From the NCBI GenBank assembly GCA_045837725.1, contig JBEWZL010000266.1, positions 496,001 to 560,000 of the forward strand: a DNA stretch of 64,000 nucleotides. The letters run 5' to 3'. The notes beneath the pieces were generated by a model, which made no database searches, was not told the DNA's origin, and saw only the letters and a list, made by a program, of their open reading frames with translations. Positions 290-27,304 of this stretch are shown here, piece by piece. The position numbers and the translations under genes are program-made. Position 1 is the first letter of the stretch; each line of letters starts with the position of its first letter. This DNA comes from Vermamoeba vermiformis. Its lineage: Eukaryota.

Positions 290-3200
290 ATGTCGCAAAT
301 CAAAGTAGTACCATTAGGTTTGTCTACAAATATACGTTCTGTAATCATCTGACCTTGTGTGATGAAGGTGCTGGACAGGATGTCGGACGAAGCTGCGTAG
401 TCGTCACAATTGGAAACAAAAATATAATGTTTGATTGTGGTATGCACATGGGGTACAACGATGAAAGGTAAAGAGTTGGCAATACAATTTGCGACAAGAT
501 CCGAGTTATAAAAATTACCAAAAAATACCAAATTATTCTAAAATACAAATTATAGTTATATATGGTGCGGGTATAATATTTAGACCTTTAATTAAATATT
601 TGTATAATTATAGGCGGTTTCCTGACTTCAGTTATTTGTCGAAGAACAAAAATTTCGATAACGTCATTGATTGCGTTATTATCTCGCATTTGTATCCTTT
701 AAACAATTATTACAATCATATAATTTAATATTATCATTCGGTTATGTTGTTTTACCTTCACTTTGCTAACAATAGCCACTTGGATCACTGCGGCGCGTTG
801 CCTCATTTTACAGAGATGTTAGGGTACGTTTAATTCCTCGAAATTATCGTTTAAATATTAAAATTGATGTAAATACTGTATTTAGGTACAATGGACCCAT
901 CCTGATGACAGTAAGAAAAAATCAATCGTTAGTCGCTCGTATCATGTCATTTAATAGTACTTATATAGCATCCCACGAAAGCTATATGCCCTATATTATT
1001 AGAAGATTACAGAAAAATTACAGTAGAACGCAAAGGCGAGACGAATTTTTTCACCTCGCAAATGATCAAAGATTGCATGAAGAAAGGTACGTCGGGAGCT
1101 TGTCCAAAATCACCATAATATCAATATTATCGCATATTTTATGCTTGCAAATGCGAGTTGTTGTATTAACCTAATTTGATCCAAAGTTACCGCCGTGAAC
1201 ATTAACGAGACCACGGAGATTGAAGAAGATTTTGAAGTGCGAGCTTATTACGCGGGACACGTAAGTTTTAATCCTTTTGTCAATATTTATACCAAGATCG
1301 ATCGGTGGTGCGCTTAGTGGTGAGATTCGCGATCAGTCTAAAACAGATTCTGTGAATCTGGTGAGAACGCATCTCAAACAAATCAACAATAATTCAATGA
1401 AACGTTTATTTTGAGCTAATTAAGATCGCGCAACCCTTTGGGCTTCGAGTCCAAGGGCTGTTCGTCTTTTGCACGACCACGTGTGTTCCGACAAATTTCT
1501 CTCAACAACGGTGCTGTAGTTTAACGGGAGAATCCCTGTCTTGGACACAGGAGACCTTGGTTCGACTCCAAGCAGCGCCTTTATCTTTTTGCCCTTAATA
1601 CTGTTTTCAAGGAGCACCCGTCATGATGGTGATCGGTTAAGCAGCTCACGCCAAAGAGATTTTTTTTGGCATAATTAGGCTACAAGTTGTGAGAAATTAC
1701 TATGAAAAGGAAACCGATCACCACCGACGAGAGAACTGTGCAGTTCGTTGCAGCCAGAGTGTTGTTTCGTCAAACTCAATTCCCTCTACCACGTTGTCAA
1801 ACATGAGTTTATCTTATCCTGTGTTGCCGTACTCTAATCATACTGATTGCTCGCCTTTCTCTTTCGATCTGCCGACCTGACTTGGTCGCGCCCTTTCGTC
1901 CTGTCCCCTCGACGGACCAGTGAGGGCCGCGGTCATCAAACCGACCTTAGCTCAGTCGGTAGAGCGGAGGACTGTAGTGAAGCATCAATCCTTAGGTCGC
2001 TGGTTCGATTCCGGCAGGTCGGATTCCTCTTTTTTGCCGTGCGCAGCTTCTTTTGCAAACGGCCTCGTCATCCTAGAGCAAAGCCGCCATGGGCAAGAGA
2101 TTGCTTTAATTTTTTTTGGCTCCGGATATTCATCTTCATCATTTTTGTTACCGAACAACTAGGTTTATCTTGGTTCAAACCTTGTACTTGGGTACCGAAG
2201 GAGACAGCCGAAAAAACGGCCTGAGACTCGTTCTTTTTGACGACTTCGTTTGTTCTCGGTTGCTCGCTTTCAAGTGAGGGGGCGTAGCTCCAACGGTAGA
2301 GCGGCGGATTCCAGGTCCGATGGTTGCGTGTTCGAATCACGTCGCCCTCATTACCTTTTTTTTGCTTGACCGCTGATTAGTTTGTCATCAAGTCTTCGTT
2401 TTTCTTCGTCTGCCGATACTTTAAACGAACTTTTTTTTGGCCTCGATCTGACCTATGGCGGTTATGGTAGTGCTAGTTACTCAACTGGTTATTAACTATT
2501 TGTTATCGAATAGGTACTTGGAGCTGCCATGTTCTACGTGCGTGTTGGTTCGCAGAGCGTGGTGTACACAGGTGACTACAACATGACTCCTGATCGCCAC
2601 TTGGGCGGTGCTAGCATTGAGAAATTGCGGCCCAATTTGTTAATTACTGAAACTACGTAAGTAATATGCATCAATGATAGGTTTATCGTGCTTCCATGAG
2701 ATAATATTGCTGCGCCACATTTTTTTTGGGATGTGATCCGGAAATTTGTACTGAGCATTCTACAATAGGTATGCAACAACTATTCGAGATTCAAAACGCA
2801 TTCGCGAGCGAGATTTCTTGAAAAGAGTGCACGAGACAGTCGAGAAAGGAGGCAAAGTCCTCATTCCTGTCTTCGCGCTTGGTCGAGCTCAAGAGTTGTG
2901 TATTTTGATCGACGCATATTGGGAACGTATGAATTTAAATGTTCCTATTTATTTCTCTGCAGGTATGATTTTTTGCGGTTCGTAACGGATGCAGATCGTA
3001 CTAACAGCACTTTAGGCTTAACCGAGAAAGCCAACTTGTATTATAAGCTATTCATCAACTGGACCAATCAAAAGATTAAGAACACGTTTGTCAAGCGAAA
3101 TATGTTTGACTTTAAGCACATCAAGCCGTTCGAAAGATCTTTCGCCGATCGACCTGGACCAATGGTTCTATTTGCAACTCCGGGCATGTTGCACGCTGGT

Positions 3201-4725
3201 ATGAATATAAAACTATAATATAATGCTATTTTATCATTATTTTCAATAACAATTTTGACAAAAAAGATCTTTCAAACCTGCGCAGATCTACTTTGCGCAA
3301 TTTACGGATACCTTAATAATAGATAGAACTAACCCGCATTATAATATTAGGCACATCCTTGGAGGTCTTCAAAAAATGGTGCACAAGTGAGACTAATATG
3401 TGTATATTACCTGGCTATTGTGTGGTCGGAACAGTCGGCAACAAAATTTTAACGCAAAGCAATGTCGTACGTAAACTTATCAATTTTATTTCACCACCAC
3501 GACTAACTCAATACGAAAAAGACTATTGATATCGATAAGAAGACTAAAATTGAAGTTAAATGTCAAGTCAAAAGTTTGTCGTTCAGTGCTCACGCGGATG
3601 CGAAAGGCATTATGCAATTAATCCGACAATGTTGTCCTGATAATGTCATGTTAGTACACGGCGAGAAGGCTAAAATGTAAGTACTACAATAGATATCATA
3701 TTAACGAAATATTATCGATAAAAGATCTAACCTTTATTTTTCAGGGAATTTTTGCAACAGAGAATCATCAACGAATTTAAAATTCCGTGTTATTCACCTG
3801 CAAACGGCTGTACGCTAGTTATCAATCCAGCTTCAAACAGAGAATCAATTGCAAACATGATTCCAGTCGAGGCATCAAACTACTTGATTGAACAGCAATT
3901 TGAACATGATGACTTTGATGACGATTGTTATGAGGGGCCTAGAGGCATCGGAGATTTCGAGGATTTATTCAAGTCAGGTACGTACCGAAAGTGACACGTG
4001 GCACTCGATATTCTTCACAAATTTGAATATCGTGTCAACTTTTTCAAAATCAAGATTGATTTCTAACGTACAATATTATGCAGAATTTTGGGAAACAATG
4101 ATGGAAGACGCTGAAGATGATGAAAATCTCGTTCATGATCTACCGACCGGTGAACTGACAGCGCCAATCAACGCTGTAATTGTAGCAGACAAACCTCTCG
4201 ATGACACGGTACGACTACTTAGACTTATGACACGTGTCATTCGTTCAGTGAACGGAGAGATACACACGTGTCATTACTTTTTGCAAGTGTAAAAATGTCA
4301 TTCTAATTTCTCATAGAATGTCAAGCTCAAGTTGTTAGACATCAACGAGGCGTCAAGAGAACTTGGTGTGCCTCAACACAGTTTGCGATTCAACAGCACA
4401 GTGACTTTGAACCACCCACTGGATAAACCAGCGTTACTAAACAAAATTGAGGAAGAGCTGAAAAGGTGAGGGACGAAAATTCTATTATGAAAATTATTAA
4501 TCTGATTGTTTTACAGCCAAAAACTCCGCGATAAAATATCCGAATTTGACGGTTCAATTTTTCTGCGGTCGATAGAATTCAAATTGCATGAACTTGCTCA
4601 AAACAAGATTAAAATGTCATGGTTGTATGAAGTAAGTGCTATCGCGATATGATTAAAAATATATTAATATTTATTAATAGGACGAGGATTTGGCTGACTT
4701 TATTTTATCGTCCCTAAGTCAATAA
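290..4725 (+). CDS. INTS11: Integrator complex subunit 11 (CPSF73-like metallo-beta-lactamase/beta-CASP nuclease), multi-exon
   Basis: Spliced translation gives [73 protein letters not shown] and C-terminal SWLYEDEDL; GT-AG introns. Confidence 0.93.
692..775 (+). other. U12-type (minor spliceosome) GT-AG intron in INTS11
   Basis: 5' site GTATCCTTT, branch-like TTACCTTCAC about 14 nt before AG; removal restores ISHF/HLDH. Confidence 0.8.
1296..1470 (+). ncRNA. Unidentified structured Pol III-like RNA candidate
   Basis: A-box-like GCTTAGTGG, B-box/T-loop-like GCTTCGAGTCC in a CCCTT/AAGGG hairpin, helix CGCGATC(1328-1334)/GATCGCG(1424-1430), hairpin CAGATTC/GAATCTG, ends in TTTT. Confidence 0.45.
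1510..1580 (+). tRNA. tRNA with UGG anticodon (nominally Pro), atypical body
   Basis: Full cloverleaf: GGTGCTG/CAGCGCC acceptor, CCTGT-CTTGGAC-ACAGG anticodon arm, CTTGG-TTCGACT-CCAAG T arm, downstream T-run. Confidence 0.85.
1619..1729. ncRNA. Long hairpin / possible box C/D-like RNA
   Basis: Perfect 12-bp inverted repeat TGGTGATCGGTT(1627-1638)/AACCGATCACCA(1712-1723), closed by CGTC/GACG; inner CTCAC/GTGAG and GCCAAA/TTTGGC stems. Confidence 0.35.
1941..2023 (+). tRNA. tRNA-Tyr(GUA) with 10-nt intron (1978-1987)
   Basis: CCGACCTTAGCTCAGTCGGTAGAGCGGAGGACTGTAG[intron]ATCCTTAGGTCGCTGGTTCGATTCCGGCAGGTCGGA is a canonical eukaryotic tRNA-Tyr; T-run terminator follows. Confidence 0.97.
2278..2350 (+). 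tRNA. tRNA-Trp(CCA)
   Basis: Cloverleaf with loop TTCCAGG and the Trp-typical GGTTGCGTGTTCGAATCACGT; T-run terminator follows. Confidence 0.95.
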
Positions 4726-4774
4726 ATTGATGCTTGAAGAATAAACCGAGCAAAATACTTGATTGAATCATAAA

Positions 4775-7745
4775 CTATTTGTTGACCTTTCGTTTAGCTA
4801 AGAAATATCCACCAAGAGCAACGCCAATCAAGCCGGCAATAGCAGCACCAACAAACATCGTTCTCGTTTGACCAAACGTTGACCAATGCTTTTTCGCTTT
4901 GTCATTACGATAGCTATTAATCCGCTCCACGAGTTGTCGCTCTGCTTCTTGTTTCAGCTCTTCAACTGGTGCGCTCAAATCAAATTTAAAACCGAAGAGG
5001 GCAACCAATGGGCCCCCAACGATTGCCTCTCGTATGTTTGTCCTGGTAGGGAGTTTTTTTAGCGTTTCTTCGAAAAATTTGAGTTCGAGCTCTTTTGTGA
5101 TCAATTTTTTGTTCTCTTTTGCTACTGCATGCAAGTACTCTTCTTTCGATGAAAAATTATCTGGTGAGAGCTTCAGCTTGAAAATGCCGTAAACAACGTA
5201 ACAGTCTAATTCTTGGTGAACTACGGACATGTCTTCGGCTGGCAGCTGTTTTGTGCATGCGGATAAACACTCCTCAATTATAAGTTGGGCAAATATGACG
5301 TTAAAAGGACTTGGCTTCGGGTAAGGTGATGGCGACGCGCTCATTTTGTTGTATAAATTGCGTACTGTCGTTAATAGCATGTCACATAGTAGTTTGTCCT
5401 CACAGGAAATTTTCTGAAATTTACGTTAAAAATTGATTTCTTGGAGAATTTAGTTATACTGATTACCTTCATAATGTTGTATTCATCAACCTTGTGGGCA
5501 ACACTTTGACACCCGCGATGAATCATCATTTCGTTGAGAGCAGCTAATCGGAGCCTAAATTACGGTTAATAATTAAGTAGTAAGTAAAGTATTTGATTTG
5601 ACGAACTTAAGCAATATCAGAAGGCAGTGGAAGTTAAAGTCTTCTGTGGTTTGATATTGTTCTTGCGGATCTAAAATTCTTCGCATAACTGGTTTTGTCC
5701 AAAACTCGCCGTTATCAATTGGCCGCTCAATAGAGACTATAAATTTTTTAATTACATTCATTTTGGCGTAAAATTAAGGTACTTACAATATTCCAGTTCG
5801 GCCAGCAGGTGAACGGCCCATTCATACTACAAATTTTAAGGTTTGGCTCGAGCTAACAAGGAAAAAAAACTTACGTTTGCAAAAGTCAGCTCGACTAATT
5901 CGTCCGCATGAAGTTTGACGAAGTACAAGCACCGTTCATGAAACCAAGAGTCAATGATATTCTCGGCCACATTAATTTTTTCAAGCCACGGCATAGTTCT
6001 GAAGCCCTAGTATTACGATGTTAGATTTCAATTGAAGCACTTTGTTGATTCGATTAAATTTACTGGAATTTGTTGTTCGATGCTCGGCGCGACTGCTTCC
6101 AGAAGTTTGTCAGCCTGTTTGATTTCTTCATCCGTAGTTCTATTGCGAAAATAGTTATTTTAATATTTATAACTTTCTCTGCATTAAGGACTTCGGCAAG
6201 CTAATTAAGGCGATATGACATCATTTTAAAAGTTCGCTGGTCCGTTGGACTTGCTTTGTCTTCCACTTACAGTTTTCGGAACGTTTCTACGGAGTTAAGA
6301 ATCATGCGAAAATATTCCAAGTCCGCAAGGTCTTGGCTTTCAATCGTAATTCTGGTTTCTGGATGTGGAACGCCATACGACAGCAAATAGCAGAACGAAG
6401 GCAGAGAGAATGGAGGCTTGGGCAAATTCCTATCAGAAGTGTAATAGTAGGGAGATTTCTTCGTATATTCCTCGTCGGGGATCGCGATCAGATGCGAAAC
6501 AACTAAACAGGAATTAGGGGAAGATTTTAAACTAAAATGATCGTACTTATTTCCGAGAATAATCGGAGTGACATTTTAGGCTGCTCTTTGCTCTGTTGAT
6601 ACTTAAGCAGATCGAACTCAAACGGATGTCCTCCCATGTTAACCGCCACTTCGTCTTGGAACAGCGAGATCGTTGCGTGTAGGCTTTTCAAATTTTTTAA
6701 CGGCTGGTCATCACTATTCTTCGTAGCTTCATAAACAAGATTTCCATTTTTGGTAAAAAACAATGAATTCCTTGCGAAGTTGATTCCAAAGCCCACTGGC
6801 TCAATAATTTTTAATTCAATAGCAGAATAATAATAATATAATACGTTACTTACGTGTATCTCCCACTTCAACAGCGGTTCCTACAGCGCAGATCATCGAA
6901 AAATCGCATTCCAGAAACACATCTGGAACTGTCGATATTCCGTATGAGCTTCTCGCTGATCCGACATATGATGAAGATCCTTCTAATGCCCCGCCAATGA
7001 TGGTGCACTGTAATTCAAAAGATCTGACGTTGCGTTATGAATTGGGGAGTTTGGGGGGGGTGGGGGGCCCCCCCTACTTTGTAATCAAAAACAAAATGTT
7101 TAGGTTTACGTACGGAGGTATCTTTAGAAATTCGACTTCAAAGTAAGCCGTGCTGAAATTGCCAATAGGATGAGGGTACAAAATGGTATCGCTTTGCACG
7201 ACCTAAATGATTGATTAGTATTGCAGGATCTCGATCGGGATAGTGTGAATTAGAAATAAGTAAGAAATGAACTCACCGCAGCAAAGCATAGTTCATCGAG
7301 CTTAGTATAGTCCATAGGCACCGGCAAGCTTTTGATTTGATTTTTCTCAATGCTAACTTGTTGAGATCTGTAGGTACCGATAAATTTCGCGTTGCGAAGC
7401 TTATCTCGAATGTATGACGCGATTCTGAACTCTTTTTTCCACTCAATGCTTTTTTGTACATTATTTTTCAGAATAGCGCCATGTCTGCCTTGAACGGGCG
7501 TCTCTAAAATTCGTAATCAGATCAATAATTTAATCCGAAAATTCCAAAAAATTACCTAATGCACCCCAACGGAATATTTTACGAGCTAGTTGTTCCCAAA
7601 GGCCATGTTGATCGTCAAACAATTTCAGATGCGTTGAATTAATACAATAGAAATTGATTATAGTTGACGTTGGGCAATATAACAATAGATCGACTAATAT
7701 TTCGTGAGGGACGAGCGTGAATATCGATTGCGTTGAGGTATCCAT
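4775..7745 (-). CDS. F-box-like/SPRY-domain protein with C-terminal membrane anchor, multi-exon
   Basis: N-terminal FTLVPHEILVDLLLY (F-box-like); SPRY motifs AYFEVEF, VGFGINF..LFFTKNG, VNMGGHPFEFD; terminal hydrophobic helix followed by KRKVNK. Exon joining is inferred. Confidence 0.6.
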
Positions 7746-7904
7746 TTGAAGAGTCAAAAAATCGAGTGACCAGATTTTTTAAGGCAGCTTAAGTCTAGTG
7801 TGAGTTCACGTAAAATAGTGATCACTATGGAAATTTCACCTTGTAGACGATCTGTATTTATTCGACTATGATGTTCCATTGACTTCAGTTTAAATTTATC
7901 GGAT

Positions 7905-10900
7905 CTACATGTCGTTTTCAATCTCTCTACTTGCTTCAGCTTCTTCTACTAACCTCTTTAATCCTTGAATATTTTGAGGCAATAACCGTTGGTGCATCAA
8001 GTAGCTTTCAACAACGTCAATCACCCTATTTGGACAATCAATCATCGCTTGCAACAACTCAAGTTGATTTGGCTTAAGCGCTGAGCCAATGATCGGCTTG
8101 CCAAAGTCAATTTCGAATTTGAACGCAGTGTCCACTAACACTCGAACCAGCATAAATTTGTCAATATGGTGGGTTTCTCTGTTTAAAACGTCAAAATGTC
8201 AAAGTACGAAAAAAAATACTATGGCACTTACAGATGCTTAAATCTTTGTAACAGCGCTGGAAATGCTAGTTCTGACTTAATCATTCCCAATAAGTAGATA
8301 GTATCAGTACTTTCGTCGTCTAACAGCGCATCAACTAAGAATTTTGGAGTTGCCTCACAATAGTGCAGGTAAACCCTCGCCAAACCAGCCACAATCGAAA
8401 GAGGCGACACACCTAGAAAAAAAATATCAGCGAAAGAAATCGTTAGTAATTTCTAGGTACCATTAGCTTTGAATTGCTTCCATTGGTCCAAGAAATATTC
8501 CAAACATTCATCACGTGGCGCTATTCTTGGGTACAAATAGCTCAGCGACCATAACATTTCGCCTTTAGTGGACCAATCGGAGTTCTTTTCGATTGCTTGT
8601 TTGAGAACCGGAACTGCTCCGAGATCGACTGCCTTGTCCAGCAACGGCAAAATTTTACACGCTTCACTCACACCTATTATCATATTCAATTAAATCCAGC
8701 AATCTTAGTTAACGAATATTTGCACTGGCAGTGCATTATTTGAAGCACTGAGCGGCGGTACTTACAATGCAAATCATCGCCCAGCAACAGCTTGAATATA
8801 ATGTGTATATCTTTCTTCACAAAAGTGTGTATTTGATGCACGTATCCAGCGAATTCGTCTTGGCCTGGATTAGGATACATTTCGTTGACATCGTAGTACT
8901 CTTTTTTGTATAGAAATTCTTCGGGGTTGAAGTACAACATGCTTCTAATGAGCCTTAGCAACGCAGGGTTAATGGTGCTGGAGCAGTCCAGTATTTCCAT
9001 CAAAAACGGAACAACGTGCGGAGCCACTAATTCACGATCCGTGAGTGAACCCATCCAGACCGGGATCTTACCTGGAAATAATGACCCTTGGTGCACTACG
9101 TTCGAGTATATTATGCTAAGTCCATCATTCTGCGTATCATGATTCCTACTCGCTAATTTTCTGATTGCGTCAGGTACTTGAATCGCTGGTCCATAAGCGT
9201 CTTGTAGCTCTGACCAATCAACTTTGTCTAACCCCGCAAAAGTAGGATAGTTTTTAATTTCGCTAGTACTCTTATCTGCGAATATTGACAATGATTAGTT
9301 AACTGCAGTCTTGTAGGTGGATGTGGATCCGCGTAGACTTACTTGCCAAAAACTCTTGAAGCGAAGCTCTTTGGTTGCATGATAACCCATATGTAGATAG
9401 TTTTTTTTCAATGCCTTCAATAGACCAAATTTTGTTCATCTCAACAAGCTGCTCTAAAGATCTGACGACGAACGGCTGTAGTTCCGTTACTTTCATGCCT
9501 GGCTCAATTTGTCCGTTCAAAGTAACCTCTAAGAACAAATCGACGCCTCTGATTAAGGTTGTCATGCTCTCTTCATGAGCATCAAGATGTTGCAAATGAA
9601 TGATCGCCTGATCCATAAACCAATCGATGACCGGTGTCAATTTCGGAACAACCTTGCCTATATAACATTATTATATTAGTGTTTGCGTACCATCGACTAT
9701 TCAAAAAGCGGTACGTACTTATAATATTGATCAACGAGTGGTGCTTGAACGGAATAGAGCTGAGAAACTAAATGTTAACGAATGAAACTGCTTATCATTA
9801 AAGTAAATATAGTTAAATATGTATCAATGCGTCTATTGATGCTAATCGAATGAAATTTACCTCCAGATCTGATCGTAGTACTTCTGAAATTTTATATAGT
9901 CAGCTAATGCTGTAGCGACTGCTTGGCTCGACTAAAAGTTAAATCGTTAGTCTTATTTTCCACATACTATCGATTATTACCTTCGTAAAGCGGCGACTTG
10001 CAATAAAAATCGAGGCAGCTAGTTTGGCGAGGGATGGATCTGGCGTCGCCAAAAACTTCTCCGTCGTGAGTGCATGTAACTTAATATTATCAGCAGCCAT
10101 TCGATTTTCTTTTTTGTAAAGCGCCAAAAGTGCACAGGCCCTAAGAATCCGAATATTATTAAAGGTCAACTTAAAATCTTTCGCGTGGGATCTACTTACC
10201 GGGTCTGATCGTCATCGTATTTTTCCGAAATTTCCGTTAATGTTTCCAAAATGATGTTATCACTATCGGTAGAGTGCACTTTCAAGCTGCTCATTAAATA
10301 GCAACAGCCTTGAATAAACTTCGGGTCATCTGTTCAAAATTAATACGGATCTCTGGCCAAGCCGGGATTACAAATTTGATAGAATTATTTGCTTACCTTT
10401 TTTGTCAATTTGGTCGATTATTTCGTCGAGATGCTTGTAAGTTGAATCGGACAATCGGTAAAGTGGAGTAGTCCAGTCCATCTCATTTTTTCGACCATCC
10501 GTTACCAAATGAGTAAGATCGATCATTTCTGCGCAAGAAGGTAAGCTTGGTTCTTCAAAAATCAAATATAAAACAATACGGTACCTGAAAGAAGGGATCC
10601 TTTTTGTAACGCATCCGAAACTAAAATTTCGAAGACCGAGTTGTTCACTACAACATTAATACTTAATTCCTCGCAATATAAATATTTTTGTATGCCTACC
10701 TGTCGCAAGCAAATCACAGAGCAATTTTGTGTTCTCGCCCACGCTTTTTAATCGTTCAAAAACGGAGCAAAAATTAAAGATCAACGATTTTCTAGCGACC
10801 GTTAAGTCTTCTTCGCTTTTGCTGGTCTTTAAAGTCTGTAATAAATTCGGTACTAATAAGAAAAACAAAATTAATTTTAAAAATTTGAGGATTGCATAAT

Positions 10901-22303: not shown

Positions 22304-25300
22304 ATGTCGCTAAAAAGGACTGTCAATTGGGTCGACCCCACTGAAGATTGGGTTCCTTACAAGCGATGTAGAATGGAAGATATATCTGATGAATTTATTG
22401 AATCGGTAAATACTGCATTATTACCGGATTTTCAACTTCGGATCTTTACAGAATTAATTCTTTAATCCAACCCTAAATTAATTTTTACAATCAATCAAGT
22501 AATAATATTTTTATTTGAAGTACCTTCCGCCCGAAGTACTGGTCAACATTTTCAAATTCTTGTCAATGCCTGACGTTGCAAGATCCGTTGTCCCTGTTTA
22601 CCAACGATGGAGGGATCTCGGTTACACGGAAGTAGAGCCTCAACAATTGCACGTTAAAGGGCACCTGTCACATTTATACATGCATGCTGTCCAGAATTAC
22701 AAGGTCTCTGCTCTGATTGTGACTGAAGGATCTCTGAACCAGATCGCCGCTCTTTTGTGTGCAAGTGCGCAACGAGACAAGACTATAACAAATGTGGTTG
22801 CCCATGGAATGTCACGTCCTACTCAGGGCCTAACAAAGGAAGAGTTTCATATCCTTGCAAATGTCGCCGAACTTGCGATCTACGCCGAACACATTGCTTA
22901 TTTGACATACTTTCCAAAAGTCACCCGCTTGCAATTGCTCCATAGTACTAGGAATTTGCCACGTTTTGCAAACAAGTTTGACTATGCTGAAGAATTGGCT
23001 GTTGACGCTCATTTCTTGACGCAACACTGTCAGTACCTTCTTTCGCTGTTCCCTTCACTGAAAAAGATCCACGTGACAAATGATCCTCAATTCACCGCAC
23101 TTGCAGTAGAAGACCAGTTAAAAGCACTGAACAAAGAGTTGGTGTGGCCTCACAACTACAGCGACGACCAGCTTGTGAACATGCCTTATCATCACTTCTA
23201 CTATCGAACAGGTCAGACTATGGCCGTCTCAAACTTTCCAGCTCTTGTGAAGAAGTGGAAGAAGACGATTGAATCAAATAAGAACAAAAAGACGGCCAAT
23301 ATGAGTTCGTCAGAGAACAAACTTCGTGCAAACATTACGTCGTTTGAGTACGAAAAAGAATTACAGACTAAGCCAGCCAAATACATATACCCGTCACTCC
23401 TCGACTTCTCCAAGAGGCTGCAAATCTCTGACGAAGTCTTGATTGCGGCCATCTCTGACCAAGCTGCTTTTATCCCAAATGCCCTGGACATCATAGTCAA
23501 CACTCAATTGCTTCCCTATTGGACGACACTTGACATGTGCATGGAGTACGACAACTTAGACTTGCTGCTGCAAGCACTGAAGGACTTGAAGAACCATACT
23601 GCAGCCGTCCAACTTCGCGTTGTTCAACGCCTTATTGAACGTCTTGGAGTTGCAGCGCTTATTGACAACCTCGGATTTGATGCATTTGTTCTACTGGCAA
23701 ACTCTTCGAATCACGAAGGCAGCACGTGTGTGTGTGTGTGTGTGGGCTATTTTTACGGGATTTTTCCCGAAGGTCGTGCGACACGCGGCGCCGAATTTGG
23801 CGCACAAGGATTTCTCCCGGGTCGTACCCCCTTGTGTGTTAGGGTTAGTGAATAAATACTAATTTTTGTATGTTTTTTGTAGTTTTTCTGGATTGTCTTT
23901 AAATTTCACTTTTAAGAAGTCGTGAAATACTTTACATCTGGATCTGTATATTTTTCTGTAGTATTTTATTTGCGCATTAAATAGATTATTTGCTAAATCG
24001 TCTCTGTCTTTTTTATTCGGAATAATCTTTAATTTTTTGTAAATTTCTTTCGTAAAATATCCGTATATTCCTGCCATCGTACTTTGGTCTTCGTTTTCCC
24101 ATTCTAATTCACTATGTTTTGTCCGATACCAACGTTCGCTTGGCTGTAGTTCGATATTATGTGGTCTTAGTATCCCGTCGATTTCGAGATCTAGTCTGGT
24201 ACGTAATTGTTCATATTTTGTGCATTTTCCTATTATGTGTTTTGTGTCTTCTGTTGCTCCACAATTGATGCAGTTTTCATCTTCGTAAATCTGTTGTAGT
24301 CTTTCAATTTCTCGATTGAATTCTTTCGTTGCGTCTTTTTTTGGTAAACGACGGAATATTTCTGCTTTTCCGTTTAATTGCTTGTGTCGTAGTTTCAGAA
24401 TGAATCCCGTGTCGATATTTTTTATATTAATCGCATTATTACTTGTTCGTTTGTGTATTACCGCGTTGAGTTTTCTGTGGTCTTTTTGGATTATATTTTG
24501 ACTTCGTTTGTTCTTTTCTTTTTATTATTTTTTTACTAGGTCTAGGTATTTGATTGATTTTCATATAATAATTATTCATCCTTTCAGGTTTCACTATGTT
24601 AGTTTCAAGATCCGTAGCTATTTTTGCCAGTTCATCGGCTTTTTCATTTCCTTCTATTATTAATTTATATTCGTTACCGTATTGAGTTGTAATGCTTCGA
24701 TTTTTGAGAAATTTGTTAATTTTTCTTCATCATTCGCGTACTGTTTCAATTTCATATCAATGTGACTTGGAACATGTTCGAACATCACATTTATTTGTCG
24801 ATTTACGATATGATCCTTTATTCGTTTAATAACTGCATCGTATTTATTGCGTTTCAATATTTGTGATCGTAGTGCCTCTCGTATCGTTTTAATCGAGCTT
24901 TCTGAGTCCGTAATGATCAAAACCTCTTTTCCGTTTGTTATTTTGCTGAGACCGTATTCAATTCCTTCTAGTTCGGATTCATACGAGTCTTGTATGTCAT
25001 TTGTTCGTTTTGATATGTTATATCGGTCATTTCCGAAGTATACGCCAAATCCTGCTTGGTTATTTTTCTTATTCATCGAACCATCCGTCCATATCGCTAT
25101 TCGGTCTTTTATTCGGTATTCTTCCGTATTGTATTGCTTGTTTTCCTTCGTTTGTTGTACTAGCGTTCGTTTGTATAATTGATTTGTTTTTAGCATGGGG
25201 AACGTGATATCGGCAACTAGGTTTTTGTACTCTTCTGGCGTTAATTCATCAGTGTCTTTCATTTGAGCGTTTATGCTATCTCGGTTTATTATTTCCCGGG

Positions 25301-27304
25301 GTGTCTTTGAGCGTTTATTCAGTAGTTTACATCCGTCGTTAATTTGGTTATCGTCCAATTTGATACGAGTTAATTCGTCTTTAATTAGTCCGAGTAGGTT
25401 ACCTTCGTTTATGTTTTTATGTAGTGTTACATCGTATGTTTTTAATATGTTGATCGTATTGCATATTAGCGGGTCATTTATTTTTCTTGTTTTTGTTATA
25501 TTTCTAGTCGCCTTTTCGTCTTTAAGTCGTTGTTCTAGTATTTTATTAAGGATCGAGTTGCTGTTCAGTCCCCTTTCTACGATACTGTTTGCAAAGGTTT
25601 TTTCGTTTGTTATTCGTAGGTTTTCAATTTGTATACCTCCTTCTGTTCTGGGTAGTTGTAGTCTATCGTTATTGGCTTTTGCGTGTAGAGGAATGGCTTT
25701 TTTGATTAAATTCATGATATTGTTGTTCATTTCGTCGAGCATGTTGTTGTCAAAAAGTTGGATTTGGAAATGATATTCTATCGATGGGATAATGACTTTC
25801 TTTATTAGTTCTGTTTTGCATAGTACGTCTAGTTTTTTTGATTTGATAATTGACAACTTGGATCGGAATTTTTTAATCGCTTCGTCGATATTATTTTGGT
25901 TTTCTCCTTTAAGGTTAATCAGTACACCAAGGTATTTGTAGTTTCCCGTCTCATTGATTGTTTGTATTGCTTTATTATAGAATTTAATGTCTTCGTTTTT
26001 GTGATACGACGCGTACGCTGATTTATCGTGGTTGACTAGAATGCCGTAATATTCTGAAAACTTTTCTATAGTCTCGGCCATTCGTTTTATGTCTCCGTAA
26101 TCTTCAGATATGAGTAATATATCATCGGCGAATGCCAGGACTGGAATTTGTATATTTTTGTTTTTCGTCATCCCGTATCCTTCTGATTCTTCTTCAATCA
26201 TTTTTAGTAGCGGATTAATAAATATAATGAATAATAATGGCGATAAACCGTCCCCTTGTTTAACTCCTCTTTCGATATCGATTTTTTCCGTTAGTTCGTT
26301 GTTCACTATTATATTCGCTTTGTTGTTTTTGTATATATTTAGTAGTAGAGTTATCATTTCGGAGTCTATTTTATAGTATTCTAGTATTTGTTGTAATCCC
26401 CAATGTTCGACGCTGTCATATGCTTTTTTGAAGTCGATGAAGGCAAGGGAATCACGAAGGCAGCACGTTGGTCCACCGATTCGTCAAAAAACACGTGGAT
26501 TTACACGAAATTTCGCCCTACATTCGCGCATGGGACGTCGTTAATGGCAAAGGAATGGCACCAATTGACATAGCAATGCAAGACTGGAATATACCCGTCG
26601 TGATGTTCTTGCTACTTCACGGAGCTCAGTTCCGAAGCATAGGTATAGACTTCCCACTTCAATCGTTCCTCAGCTACGCTATTTCCTATTATGGAAATCA
26701 TCCTCATCAGTTGGAACTCGCGGAAATAATTCGTCACTTGGTCACGCATTATGGCGCTGCGATAAATTATCCCGATCAAAGTGGAGATAGTTGTCTTGGT
26801 ATCGCTATCAAAACCGGCAACCCAGTAATTTTGCAACTGATTCTGAGTTGGGAGGAAATGTTCACTGGCCATGCAGCAACGGCATGAAGCCAGTGCCACT
26901 CGTTTGCAGATTAATCAACAACATCAACGACTTCAAATGCATGATCAATTGCTTGGTAGAGTACGGGGCTGACATCAACGCAACTGGCATTCAATTCTAC
27001 CCGCATTATTCCTGCGAAATTTCGCCATTAGTAATTCTCATGGACAAGCCAAATCCCGAGCCATACATGAGACAGTCATGGTGCCTCGTTGAACTCTATT
27101 GATGCGTATGGCTGGACAGTGTTACATTACTACATCCAGAAAGTGAGCGATCAAGACCGCGTTGCTCGATTATTGCAACAAAAGATACCAAACTGTAGCG
27201 TGCAGTATGAAGGAGGCGAACAATATTTAAATCTTGATGCAAGTATGATTACTGCACAAATCAGCGAACAAGTCCTCAAGGAGCTTTTTTCAGATAGTGC
27301 CTAG
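22304..27304 (+). pseudogene. F-box/LRR/ankyrin gene disrupted by a LINE insertion and frameshifts
   Basis: YLPPEVLVNIFKFL F-box; removing the insertion restores NSSNHEGSTLVHRF, matching paralog NSQNSNGNTQAHRI; frameshifts near 26845 and 27075. Confidence 0.85.
23728..26448 (-). mobile_element. 5'-truncated non-LTR retrotransposon (RT, RNase H, CCHC knuckle)
   Basis: FIDFKKAYDSV, GVKQGDGLSP, LAFADD (RT); WTDGS, ELEGI, TDSES, HVPSH (RNase H); CINC..H....C; (CA)n tail; TSD GAATCACGAAGGCAGCACGT at 23708-23727 and 26449-26468. Confidence 0.96.

Follow-up and report, generated by a model that had tools for sequence, protein, structure and literature searches.

Transfer RNA (tRNA) genes that combine the anticodon of one amino acid with the body of another family have been described in several settings. 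In eukaryotes, 31 alloacceptor shifts are described, 28 of the 31 being single-base events (PMC3923123), and changes outside the anticodon, for example at position 37 and at the discriminator, are reported to accompany them (PMC3923123, PMC2997554). The description of tRNAscan-SE 2.0 puts agreement between the anticodon and the isotype model at more than 95% of tRNAs, the others receiving the flag 'isotype prediction disagreement'. In the tRNA-Ser(UGG) of yeast, the nev-tRNAs of nematodes (PMC3333845) and the bacterial tRNAProX (PMC10404621), the anticodon is uncoupled from charging identity; as these tRNAs are described, they depend either on anticodon-blind synthetases (Ser, Leu) or on a dedicated enzyme. 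Here we describe a tRNA gene with the proline anticodon UGG (the UGG gene), which lies in an intron of the INTS11 gene in a 64,000-nt stretch of Vermamoeba vermiformis DNA (GCA_045837725.1, contig JBEWZL010000266.1, positions 496,001 to 560,000, forward strand; this whole stretch is called the window). The gene probably belongs to the known class of isotype/anticodon disagreement and alloacceptor shift, and its oddity is probably harmless.

How does this gene compare with the described systems? Like the alloacceptor shifts, it carries the anticodon of one amino acid on a body with the marks of another family. However, as set out in PMC3923123, alloacceptor shifts are defined by synteny with an orthologue that bears the ancestral anticodon, and for the UGG gene the scans described below gave no relative among the matches listed. 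In addition, the body of the UGG tRNA looks like a mosaic and does not stand one substitution from a clear parent; a Gly, Asp or Glu parent would need two to three changes, unlike the 28/31 single-base shifts (PMC3923123). The gene also resembles a human conflict case presented with tRNAscan-SE 2.0, which is likewise a high-scoring, well-folded singleton of doubtful function in which anticodon and body clash; that human tRNA, however, has a clear parent (Met), from which it differs by 7 nt, and its expression is reported there as measured and low, whereas the UGG gene is without a clear parent. Unlike the yeast, nematode and bacterial tRNAs mentioned above, the UGG tRNA lacks both a long variable arm and G3:U70, and no partner enzyme is known for it. 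Finally, the tRNA-Pro(UGG) of several viral contigs (IMG/VR L013, L020, L055, L056, L076 and L098) and of Pseudomonas phages (for example phiIBB-PAA2) has an identical anticodon arm, CCUGU-CUUGGAC-ACAGG, which shows that UGG combined with A37 is viable in some translation systems. The bodies of these viral tRNAs are nevertheless unrelated to that of the UGG tRNA and several end in CCA; in a whole-molecule blastn search against phages, the best E-value was 1e-3 (tRNA-Ala/Val/Pro) and no match covered 80% of the UGG tRNA.

Structure of the UGG gene

The UGG tRNA forms a cloverleaf without a stem mismatch; its 21 pairs are all standard and include three G.U pairs. The acceptor stem is GGUGCUG/CAGCGCC and includes U3:G70; U8, A9 and C26 are present; and the D stem (G10.U25, U11-A24, U12-A23, U13.G22) closes a D loop of 7 nt with GG. 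The anticodon stem, CCUGU/ACAGG, carries the loop C32 U33 U34 G35 G36 A37 C38 at 1540-1546, and it is followed by a 4-nt variable loop, AGAC, without residue 47, and by the T arm CUUGG-UUCGACU-CCAAG. The Rfam tRNA model (RF00005) gave the gene 59.6 bits over model positions 1-71, where the gathering score is 29 and the neighbouring tRNA-Tyr gene scores 59.7. All the structural features listed in the original prediction, namely the cloverleaf, the UGG anticodon, A37-C38, U73, U3:G70 and the 4-nt variable loop, were found in the sequence and in the ARAGORN and Rfam results.

The signals for transcription by RNA polymerase III (Pol III) are listed in Table 1; the A-box call was made against the usual consensus. 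The three trailers compared, those of the UGG, Tyr and Trp genes, have the common form TTNYC-T(5-8)-GC. Of the features of a functional elongator tRNA gene (Pol III type 2), the cloverleaf, the conserved core bases, the B box and a downstream T run are found in the UGG gene, which is a structurally intact nuclear Pol III tRNA gene of ordinary look. An organellar origin, or an origin from a nuclear copy of mitochondrial DNA, was set aside, since neither the D loop nor the T loop departs from the canonical form and the flanks are like those of the neighbouring nuclear tRNA genes. A short interspersed nuclear element (SINE) or a decayed pseudogene was rejected on the grounds of a single copy, with no second copy in the 64-kb window, a score of 59.6 bits and the absence of stem mismatches.

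Table 1. Coordinates in the window of the UGG gene, its signals and the surrounding features
Feature	Positions	Strand	Evidence
INTS11 host intron, 1253 nt, holding three tRNA genes on the sense strand	1261..2513	+	GT at 1261, AG ending at 2513; exon translations
Stretch of 227 nt identical between the haplotypes of the DNA run: tRNA, 135 nt upstream and 21 nt downstream	1375..1601	+	one unitig, depth 330.8, 0 differences
T-arm-like hairpin upstream of the UGG gene, then TCTTTTGC with TTTT at 1467-1470	1434..1457	+	local alignment to the T arm: 16/18, 2-nt gap
UGG tRNA gene, 71 nt, body not of the Pro type	1510..1580	+	ARAGORN tRNA-Pro(tgg); Rfam RF00005; 21/21 stem pairs standard
A-box-like Pol III promoter element TAGTTTAACGG, tRNA positions 8-19	1517..1527	+	sequence
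Anticodon TGG (U34 G35 G36), followed by A37 at 1545 and C38 at 1546	1542..1544	+	sequence; ARAGORN: gene position 33
B box GGTTCGACTCC, exact	1559..1569	+	fits Rfam consensus GGUUCgAaUCC
Discriminator U73 (apparently C in the haplotype of the water metagenome)	1580	+	sequence; contig of the water metagenome
T5 run, Pol III terminator, 6 nt past the UGG gene	1586..1590	+	sequence of 3' trailers
tRNA-Tyr(GUA) gene, 10-nt intron directly after position 37	1941..2023	+	Rfam 59.7 bits, 13-nt stretch where the model has 3
tRNA-Trp(CCA) gene	2278..2350	+	ARAGORN; Rfam 53.4 bits

Identity elements of the UGG tRNA

To which family does the body of this tRNA belong? According to PMC9976931, the identity elements of eukaryotic tRNA-Pro are C73, G35 and G36. 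The UGG tRNA has G35 and G36, but its discriminator is U instead of C73. Eukaryotic cytosolic tRNA-Pro nearly always has G37, the site of 1-methylguanosine (m1G37); at this position the UGG tRNA has A. With U73 and A37, the body is without the proline marks that lie outside the anticodon, as had been proposed.

The sets listed in PMC9976931 for other families are represented to different degrees. The Gly set consists of G1-C72, C2-G71, G3-C70, C35, C36 and the triple (G10-Y25):G45, with A73 in Eukarya and U73 in Bacteria (PMC9976931); the UGG tRNA has G1-C72, G10.U25 with G45 and the bacterial-type U73, and it lacks C35, C36, C2-G71, G3-C70 and A73. From the eukaryotic Asp set (G73, G10.U25, G34 U35 C36, plus C38; PMC9976931), G10.U25 and C38 are present, and G73 and all three anticodon bases are absent. 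The eukaryotic Thr set (U73, G1-C72, U3-A70, G5-C68, G35, U36; PMC9976931) is represented by U73, G1-C72, U3, which is paired with G70, and G35, with C5-G68 in place of G5-C68 and without U36; position 73 is described there as having little weight for Thr identity. Every core feature of the Escherichia coli Glu set (U34 U35 C36 A37, U11-A24, U13-G22:A46, absence of residue 47; PMC9976931) is present, namely U11-A24, U13-G22:A46 and the missing residue 47, and so is A37. G10.U25, C38 and a variable loop of 4 nt are in keeping with the Asp/Glu/Gly group. Identity marks of families other than Pro are thus present, which on this count places the gene among the tRNAs with isotype disagreement.

The distribution of the single arms was then counted in prokaryotic and viral sequences, which can serve as an indication only. 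The D-arm motif (GTAGTTTAA...AGAATC) had 35 prokaryotic carriers, comprising 23 Gly, 5 Arg, 2 Trp, 2 Ala, 1 Phe, 1 His and 1 uncalled tRNA, many of the 23 Gly carriers being near-identical and from related Acidobacteriaceae bins; four of the six viral carriers were also Gly. The anticodon arm, searched with the anticodon free and A37 required, occurred in at least 118 viral contigs. Among the matches listed, the 90 unique carriers of this arm included 24 Thr, 15 Ile, 11 Arg, 8 Pro and 8 Ala tRNAs, and Thr was enriched relative to the unique tRNAs without the arm at the same loci (24/90 vs 48/1058; odds ratio 7.7, p = 6e-11). The pair A37-C38 was commonest in viral tRNA-Glu (19/56) and tRNA-Asp (12/41) and rarer in tRNA-Thr (7/48) and tRNA-Gly (2/54). 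The number of anticodon substitutions that separate the families from UGG is one for Thr(UGU), two each for Gly(UCC) and Glu(UUC), and three for Asp(GUC).

Judged from its bases, the body of the UGG tRNA therefore looks like a mosaic of a Gly/Asp/Glu-type D arm and core with a Thr-type anticodon arm and discriminator. Because Gly/Asp/Glu marks and Thr marks are both present, no single parent isotype is singled out. The Gly/Asp-like scaffold of the original prediction holds for the D arm, which is mostly of the Gly type (23/35 and 4/6), for G10.U25, for C38 and for the variable loop; it does not extend to the anticodon arm, which is most often Thr, nor to U73, G1-C72, U3 and G35, which are in the Thr set. 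A hand count against the usual vertebrate tRNA sequences placed the UGG tRNA closest to Thr(UGU), at ~70%, and at ~53-59% to Pro, Gln, Gly, Glu, Asp and Ala tRNAs; relative to the vertebrate Thr(UGU), the anticodon arm differs at positions 36 and 38 only. These figures serve as a lead and do not amount to a test. A nearest-neighbour isotype classifier (1174 viral tRNAs, anticodon masked, internal accuracy 77-79%) was discarded as uninformative for a eukaryotic tRNA: it assigned the window's tRNA-Trp to Met and gave a mix of Glu, Ala, Val, His, Gly and Ile for the UGG tRNA.

Relatives in metagenomes and viruses

No relative of the UGG tRNA was found in the metagenome and viral scans, among the matches listed. 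The exact D-arm pattern had no match in the metagenomes. The pattern UGG-A37-C38/AGAC matched only one metagenome sequence (L001), an unrelated 79-nt tRNA-Pro ending in CCA, and had no match in the viral sequences. A bacterial transfer of the gene was considered and rejected, there being no identical body among the 35 prokaryotic D-arm carriers. In a full-text literature search, the anticodon-arm strings had no match, a result that concerns these strings and carries no wider claim on published work.

Some partial likenesses were observed in these scans. Two tRNA-Ala(UGC) genes of a Leptonemataceae genome (L150, 6969-7018, and L155, 4006-4055) have exactly the D arm of the UGG tRNA; they are Gly-like in architecture too, with a 4-nt variable loop and a 7-nt D loop, and they have G3:U70. 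In a tRNA-Glu(UUC) on the viral contig L093, the 5' half (the 5' strand of the acceptor stem, the D arm, the anticodon stem and C32/A37/C38) resembles the UGG tRNA nearly base for base, and the T arm and discriminator differ.

Read support, copy number and haplotypes

Positions 1200-2600 of the window were compared with public sequencing data, consisting of a DNA run, a water metagenome from another study and two RNA sequencing (RNA-seq) runs of complementary DNA. In the water metagenome, a 306-nt contig covers 1426-1579 with one gap at 1451 and one other differing letter, none being listed within the tRNA. Past 1579 the contig has C where the window has T, then the common terminator, and then it diverges, so that a second haplotype or a close relative seems to carry C73. 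Because the DNA run may be the sample behind the assembly, it is the water metagenome that gives independent support for the UGG anticodon. For an assembly or sequencing artefact, against which a raw-read check had been proposed, no evidence was found; with the unitig over 1375-1601 (depth 330.8, 0 differences) and the contig over 1426-1579 agreeing with the window within the tRNA, we regard the anticodon as real and this explanation as having a negligible probability.

In the DNA run, the depth over the UGG tRNA is 331-352, inside the range of the unique flanks (244-534), and the unitig runs unbroken across both borders of the gene. Because repeated tRNA genes do not allow such an unbroken unitig, and with the depth at the level of the flanks, we conclude that the UGG gene is a singleton. 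The summed depths of the Tyr (4457-8672) and Trp (3324-6587) genes are roughly 15-30 times that of the UGG gene, although depth is not copy number, and these two genes perhaps represent families of 15-30 copies. Membership of a multi-copy family, as expected of a major decoder, was not found for the UGG gene.

These observations bear on the idea that we are looking at the normal tRNA-Pro(UGG) of this lineage, its body being the lineage's diverged proline scaffold. The proline codons in the long open reading frames (ORFs) are 93 CCA, 93 CCT, 71 CCG and 40 CCC; CCA being joint first, its major decoder would be expected to be multi-copy, whereas the UGG gene is single beside Tyr and Trp genes of ~15-30 times its depth (with the reservation on depth made above), and it has A37 in place of G37. 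On the other side, the haplotype of the water metagenome appears to have C73, the eukaryotic Pro discriminator, and the window's tRNA-Trp also looks diverged, its acceptor and anticodon stems being unlike those of the usual animal tRNA-Trp. Taken together, we consider it very improbable that this is the ordinary proline tRNA.

The intron that surrounds the gene occurs in the DNA run in two forms, with a depth ratio of ~2:1 (242.8 vs 120.5 at 1284-1404; 276.9 vs 143.7 at 2428-2558), which suggests three genome copies or a mixed sample. The two forms differ by four substitutions and one insertion at 1284-1404, all within 1314-1374, and by nine substitutions and four gap letters at 2428-2558. For 1623-1857, only the deeper form was found. 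With ~11 events in 230 alignable intron bases nearby, the 227-nt stretch that includes the UGG gene should hold ~11 differences; none was seen, which hints at constraint on 1375-1601.

Proline codons and the genetic code

Could the gene reflect a change in the meaning of CCA? Nine prolines conserved with human INTS11 are encoded by CCC (972, 2631), CCT (990, 2589, 2866, 2944, 3153), CCA (3159) and CCG (3180). The examples given in the original prediction are real: the proline of the N-terminal VVP of INTS11 is encoded by CCA at 311-313, and the second proline of PGPM is the CCA at 3159. Because CCA and CCG still encode conserved prolines, there is no recoding, and the earlier judgement that genome-wide recoding is unlikely agrees with CCA 3159 and CCG 3180. 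A singleton gene can neither recode CCA nor serve as its main decoder, and no change in the genetic code is indicated.

Charging and decoding

What, then, might the UGG tRNA do? Because the eukaryote-type prolyl-tRNA synthetase (ProRS) is described as relying mainly on G35/G36 (PMC9976931), plain prolylation is the simplest expectation. C72/C73 is described as dispensable for this type of enzyme, at a 3.2-fold loss. We tentatively prefer to see the UGG gene as a low-level, proline-charged minor tRNA, anticodon-shifted or mosaic, while granting that it may well be something else. Pol III would transcribe the gene at a low level, and the eukaryote-type ProRS, reading mainly G35 and G36, would charge its product with proline, perhaps inefficiently. 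The tRNA, lacking m1G37, would then be a rare and redundant isodecoder that translates CCA/CCG into proline, with little or no effect on the proteome.

Several points weigh against this interpretation. The description of the body as not of the proline type is based on identity elements and on arm counts in prokaryotic and viral sets, that is, in other domains of life. With a swapped acceptor end, human ProRS is reported to require the cognate anticodon-D stem 'biloop' as well, and because of this dependence the UGG tRNA may be a poor ProRS substrate. For the 71-nt gene alone, the Poisson chance of no difference between the two forms is ~0.03; the identical block also takes in 135 nt upstream without known function, so a shared haplotype block may account for the identity of 1375-1601 as well as selection on the tRNA does. 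The cloverleaf has a free energy of -19.7 kcal/mol, 6 kcal/mol above the minimum free energy (MFE) fold (-25.8 kcal/mol), with a fold z-score of -1.66; a preference of the MFE for a non-cloverleaf fold is common among unmodified tRNA sequences. Lastly, no RNA-seq read from the two runs lies on 1510-1580. The INTS11 exon bin at 1200-1246 also has none, so this result is uninformative; there were 15 and 29 matching reads in all, from the ~46-48% of each run that was read, such libraries rarely hold tRNA, and the reads on the Tyr and Trp genes came from other copies.

The same data bear on the possibility that the gene is a silent or inert relic, intact in appearance and with no useful transcription or no aminoacylation, and so with no role in translation. 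Conflict tRNAs are called 'probably not functional' by the authors of tRNAscan-SE 2.0, and this gene is a single copy beside the multi-copy Tyr and Trp families. It has three G.U pairs, a weak D stem and a cloverleaf less stable than the MFE fold; the possible T-arm-like relic upstream suggests local decay of tRNA genes, and the absence of RNA reads, from uninformative libraries, is in keeping with silence. Against a relic stand the 21 pairs without a mismatch, the exact B box and the terminator typical of the lineage; moreover, within an intron that varies around it, the gene shows no difference either between the haplotypes or in a third sample. We regard a silent gene as a real possibility, but on balance an unlikely one.

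Another question is whether the tRNA might keep its parent's identity and put Thr, or Gly/Asp/Glu, in at CCA/CCG. From the Thr set it retains U73, G1-C72, U3 and G35; from the Asp set, G10.U25 and C38; and from the E. coli Glu set, U11-A24, U13-G22:A46, A37 and the lack of residue 47. Strong mischarging capacities are reported among tRNA-Thr isoacceptors, and an engineered tRNA-Ser with a UGG anticodon mistranslates in yeast (both according to PMC9976931). However, the synthetases of all the candidate parents use sets of anticodon bases that are changed in the UGG tRNA (Gly, C35 C36; Asp, G34 U35 C36; Thr, G35 U36; Glu, U35 C36). Nor does the tRNA have an anticodon-independent identity, since it lacks the long variable arm of Ser and Leu and the G3:U70 of Ala, the latter pair being reversed to U3:G70. 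Because the parents' anticodon bases are changed and no anticodon-independent identity is present, mistranslation is not expected. The nine conserved INTS11 prolines are encoded normally, an observation that is blind to low-level substitution. A mistranslating tRNA is accordingly improbable in our estimation.

The absence of G37 raises a further point. The modification m1G37 is described as suppressing frameshifts (PMC9976931), and because A37 replaces G37, there is no m1G37 in the UGG tRNA. Of 55 unselected viral tRNA-Pro, 35 have G at position 37, 13 have A and 7 have T. Because 13/55 of these have A37 and several phage tRNA-Pro share the exact anticodon loop, A37 alone is not exotic. One could nevertheless imagine a selected special-purpose RNA, either a frameshift-prone decoder without m1G37 or a tRNA-shaped RNA with a non-translational role, and here the loss of the m1G37 site by A37 beside G36 and the identity of the 227-nt stretch between haplotypes could be cited. 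The frequency of A37 in viral tRNA-Pro, the lack of relatives in the metagenome and viral scans among the matches listed, and the absence of RNA-seq reads on the gene (from the uninformative libraries) speak against it, and we hold it to be far from likely. A similarly low probability is given to the related proposal of a conserved, selected non-canonical decoder that, with an unmodifiable A37 and a mosaic body, does what a normal tRNA-Pro cannot. Such a decoder might cause +1 frameshifts at CCN or, in certain circumstances, read CCA/CCG as some amino acid that is not proline, and the U73 of the window and the C73 of the water metagenome might then reflect ongoing tuning of charging identity.

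If the UGG tRNA is expressed and charged, in accordance with the proline-charged minor tRNA that we prefer, it would provide a natural test of how far G35/G36 alone suffice for a eukaryote-type ProRS to accept a foreign body, and it would show the effect of a proline decoder without m1G37 on reading-frame maintenance. If it is silent, the gene is a further anticodon/body conflict that annotation pipelines should flag and not count as tRNA-Pro.

Genomic context

The left end of the window encodes INTS11, four exons of which match human INTS11 (PDB) at 181 of 223 residues by a hand count (~81%); by this identity the gene looks animal-like. The exon upstream of the host intron ends with ...YYAGH at 1260 and the downstream exon begins with VLGAAMF... 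at 2514; the exons that flank the intron match the human protein up to residue 133 and from residue 158 on. The G+C content of the host intron is ~0.42-0.54, against ~0.28-0.40 in the adjacent sequence and 40% in the window as a whole.

Upstream of the UGG gene, the T-arm-like hairpin and the TCTTTTGC that follows it, up to 1472, lie inside the 227-nt identical block, and TCTTTTGC is like the UGG gene's own terminator. From its sequence, 1434-1472 may be left over from a tandem tRNA copy that has decayed, and the hairpin from the 3' half of a tRNA. The hairpin has no Rfam match, and in the 135 nt upstream of the UGG gene there was no Rfam family and no significant fold (z-scores -1.08 and -0.22).

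As for the other two tRNA genes of the intron, the tRNA-Tyr(GUA) was mislabelled Thr-agt by ARAGORN, and in the tRNA-Trp the Rfam alignment marks a mismatch, G27/A43, where the anticodon stem begins at its top. A contig of the DNA run (depth 254) passes directly from 2035 to 2230 and leaves out 194 nt that lie between the Tyr and Trp genes; there is probably a Tyr-Trp pair with a shorter spacer on another haplotype or at another place in the genome. Farther along the window, an ORF of 565 aa on the reverse strand (24660-26357) contains RVT_1 and RNase H domains and represents a retroelement, near which there are several F-box-like/ankyrin and leucine-rich repeat ORFs.

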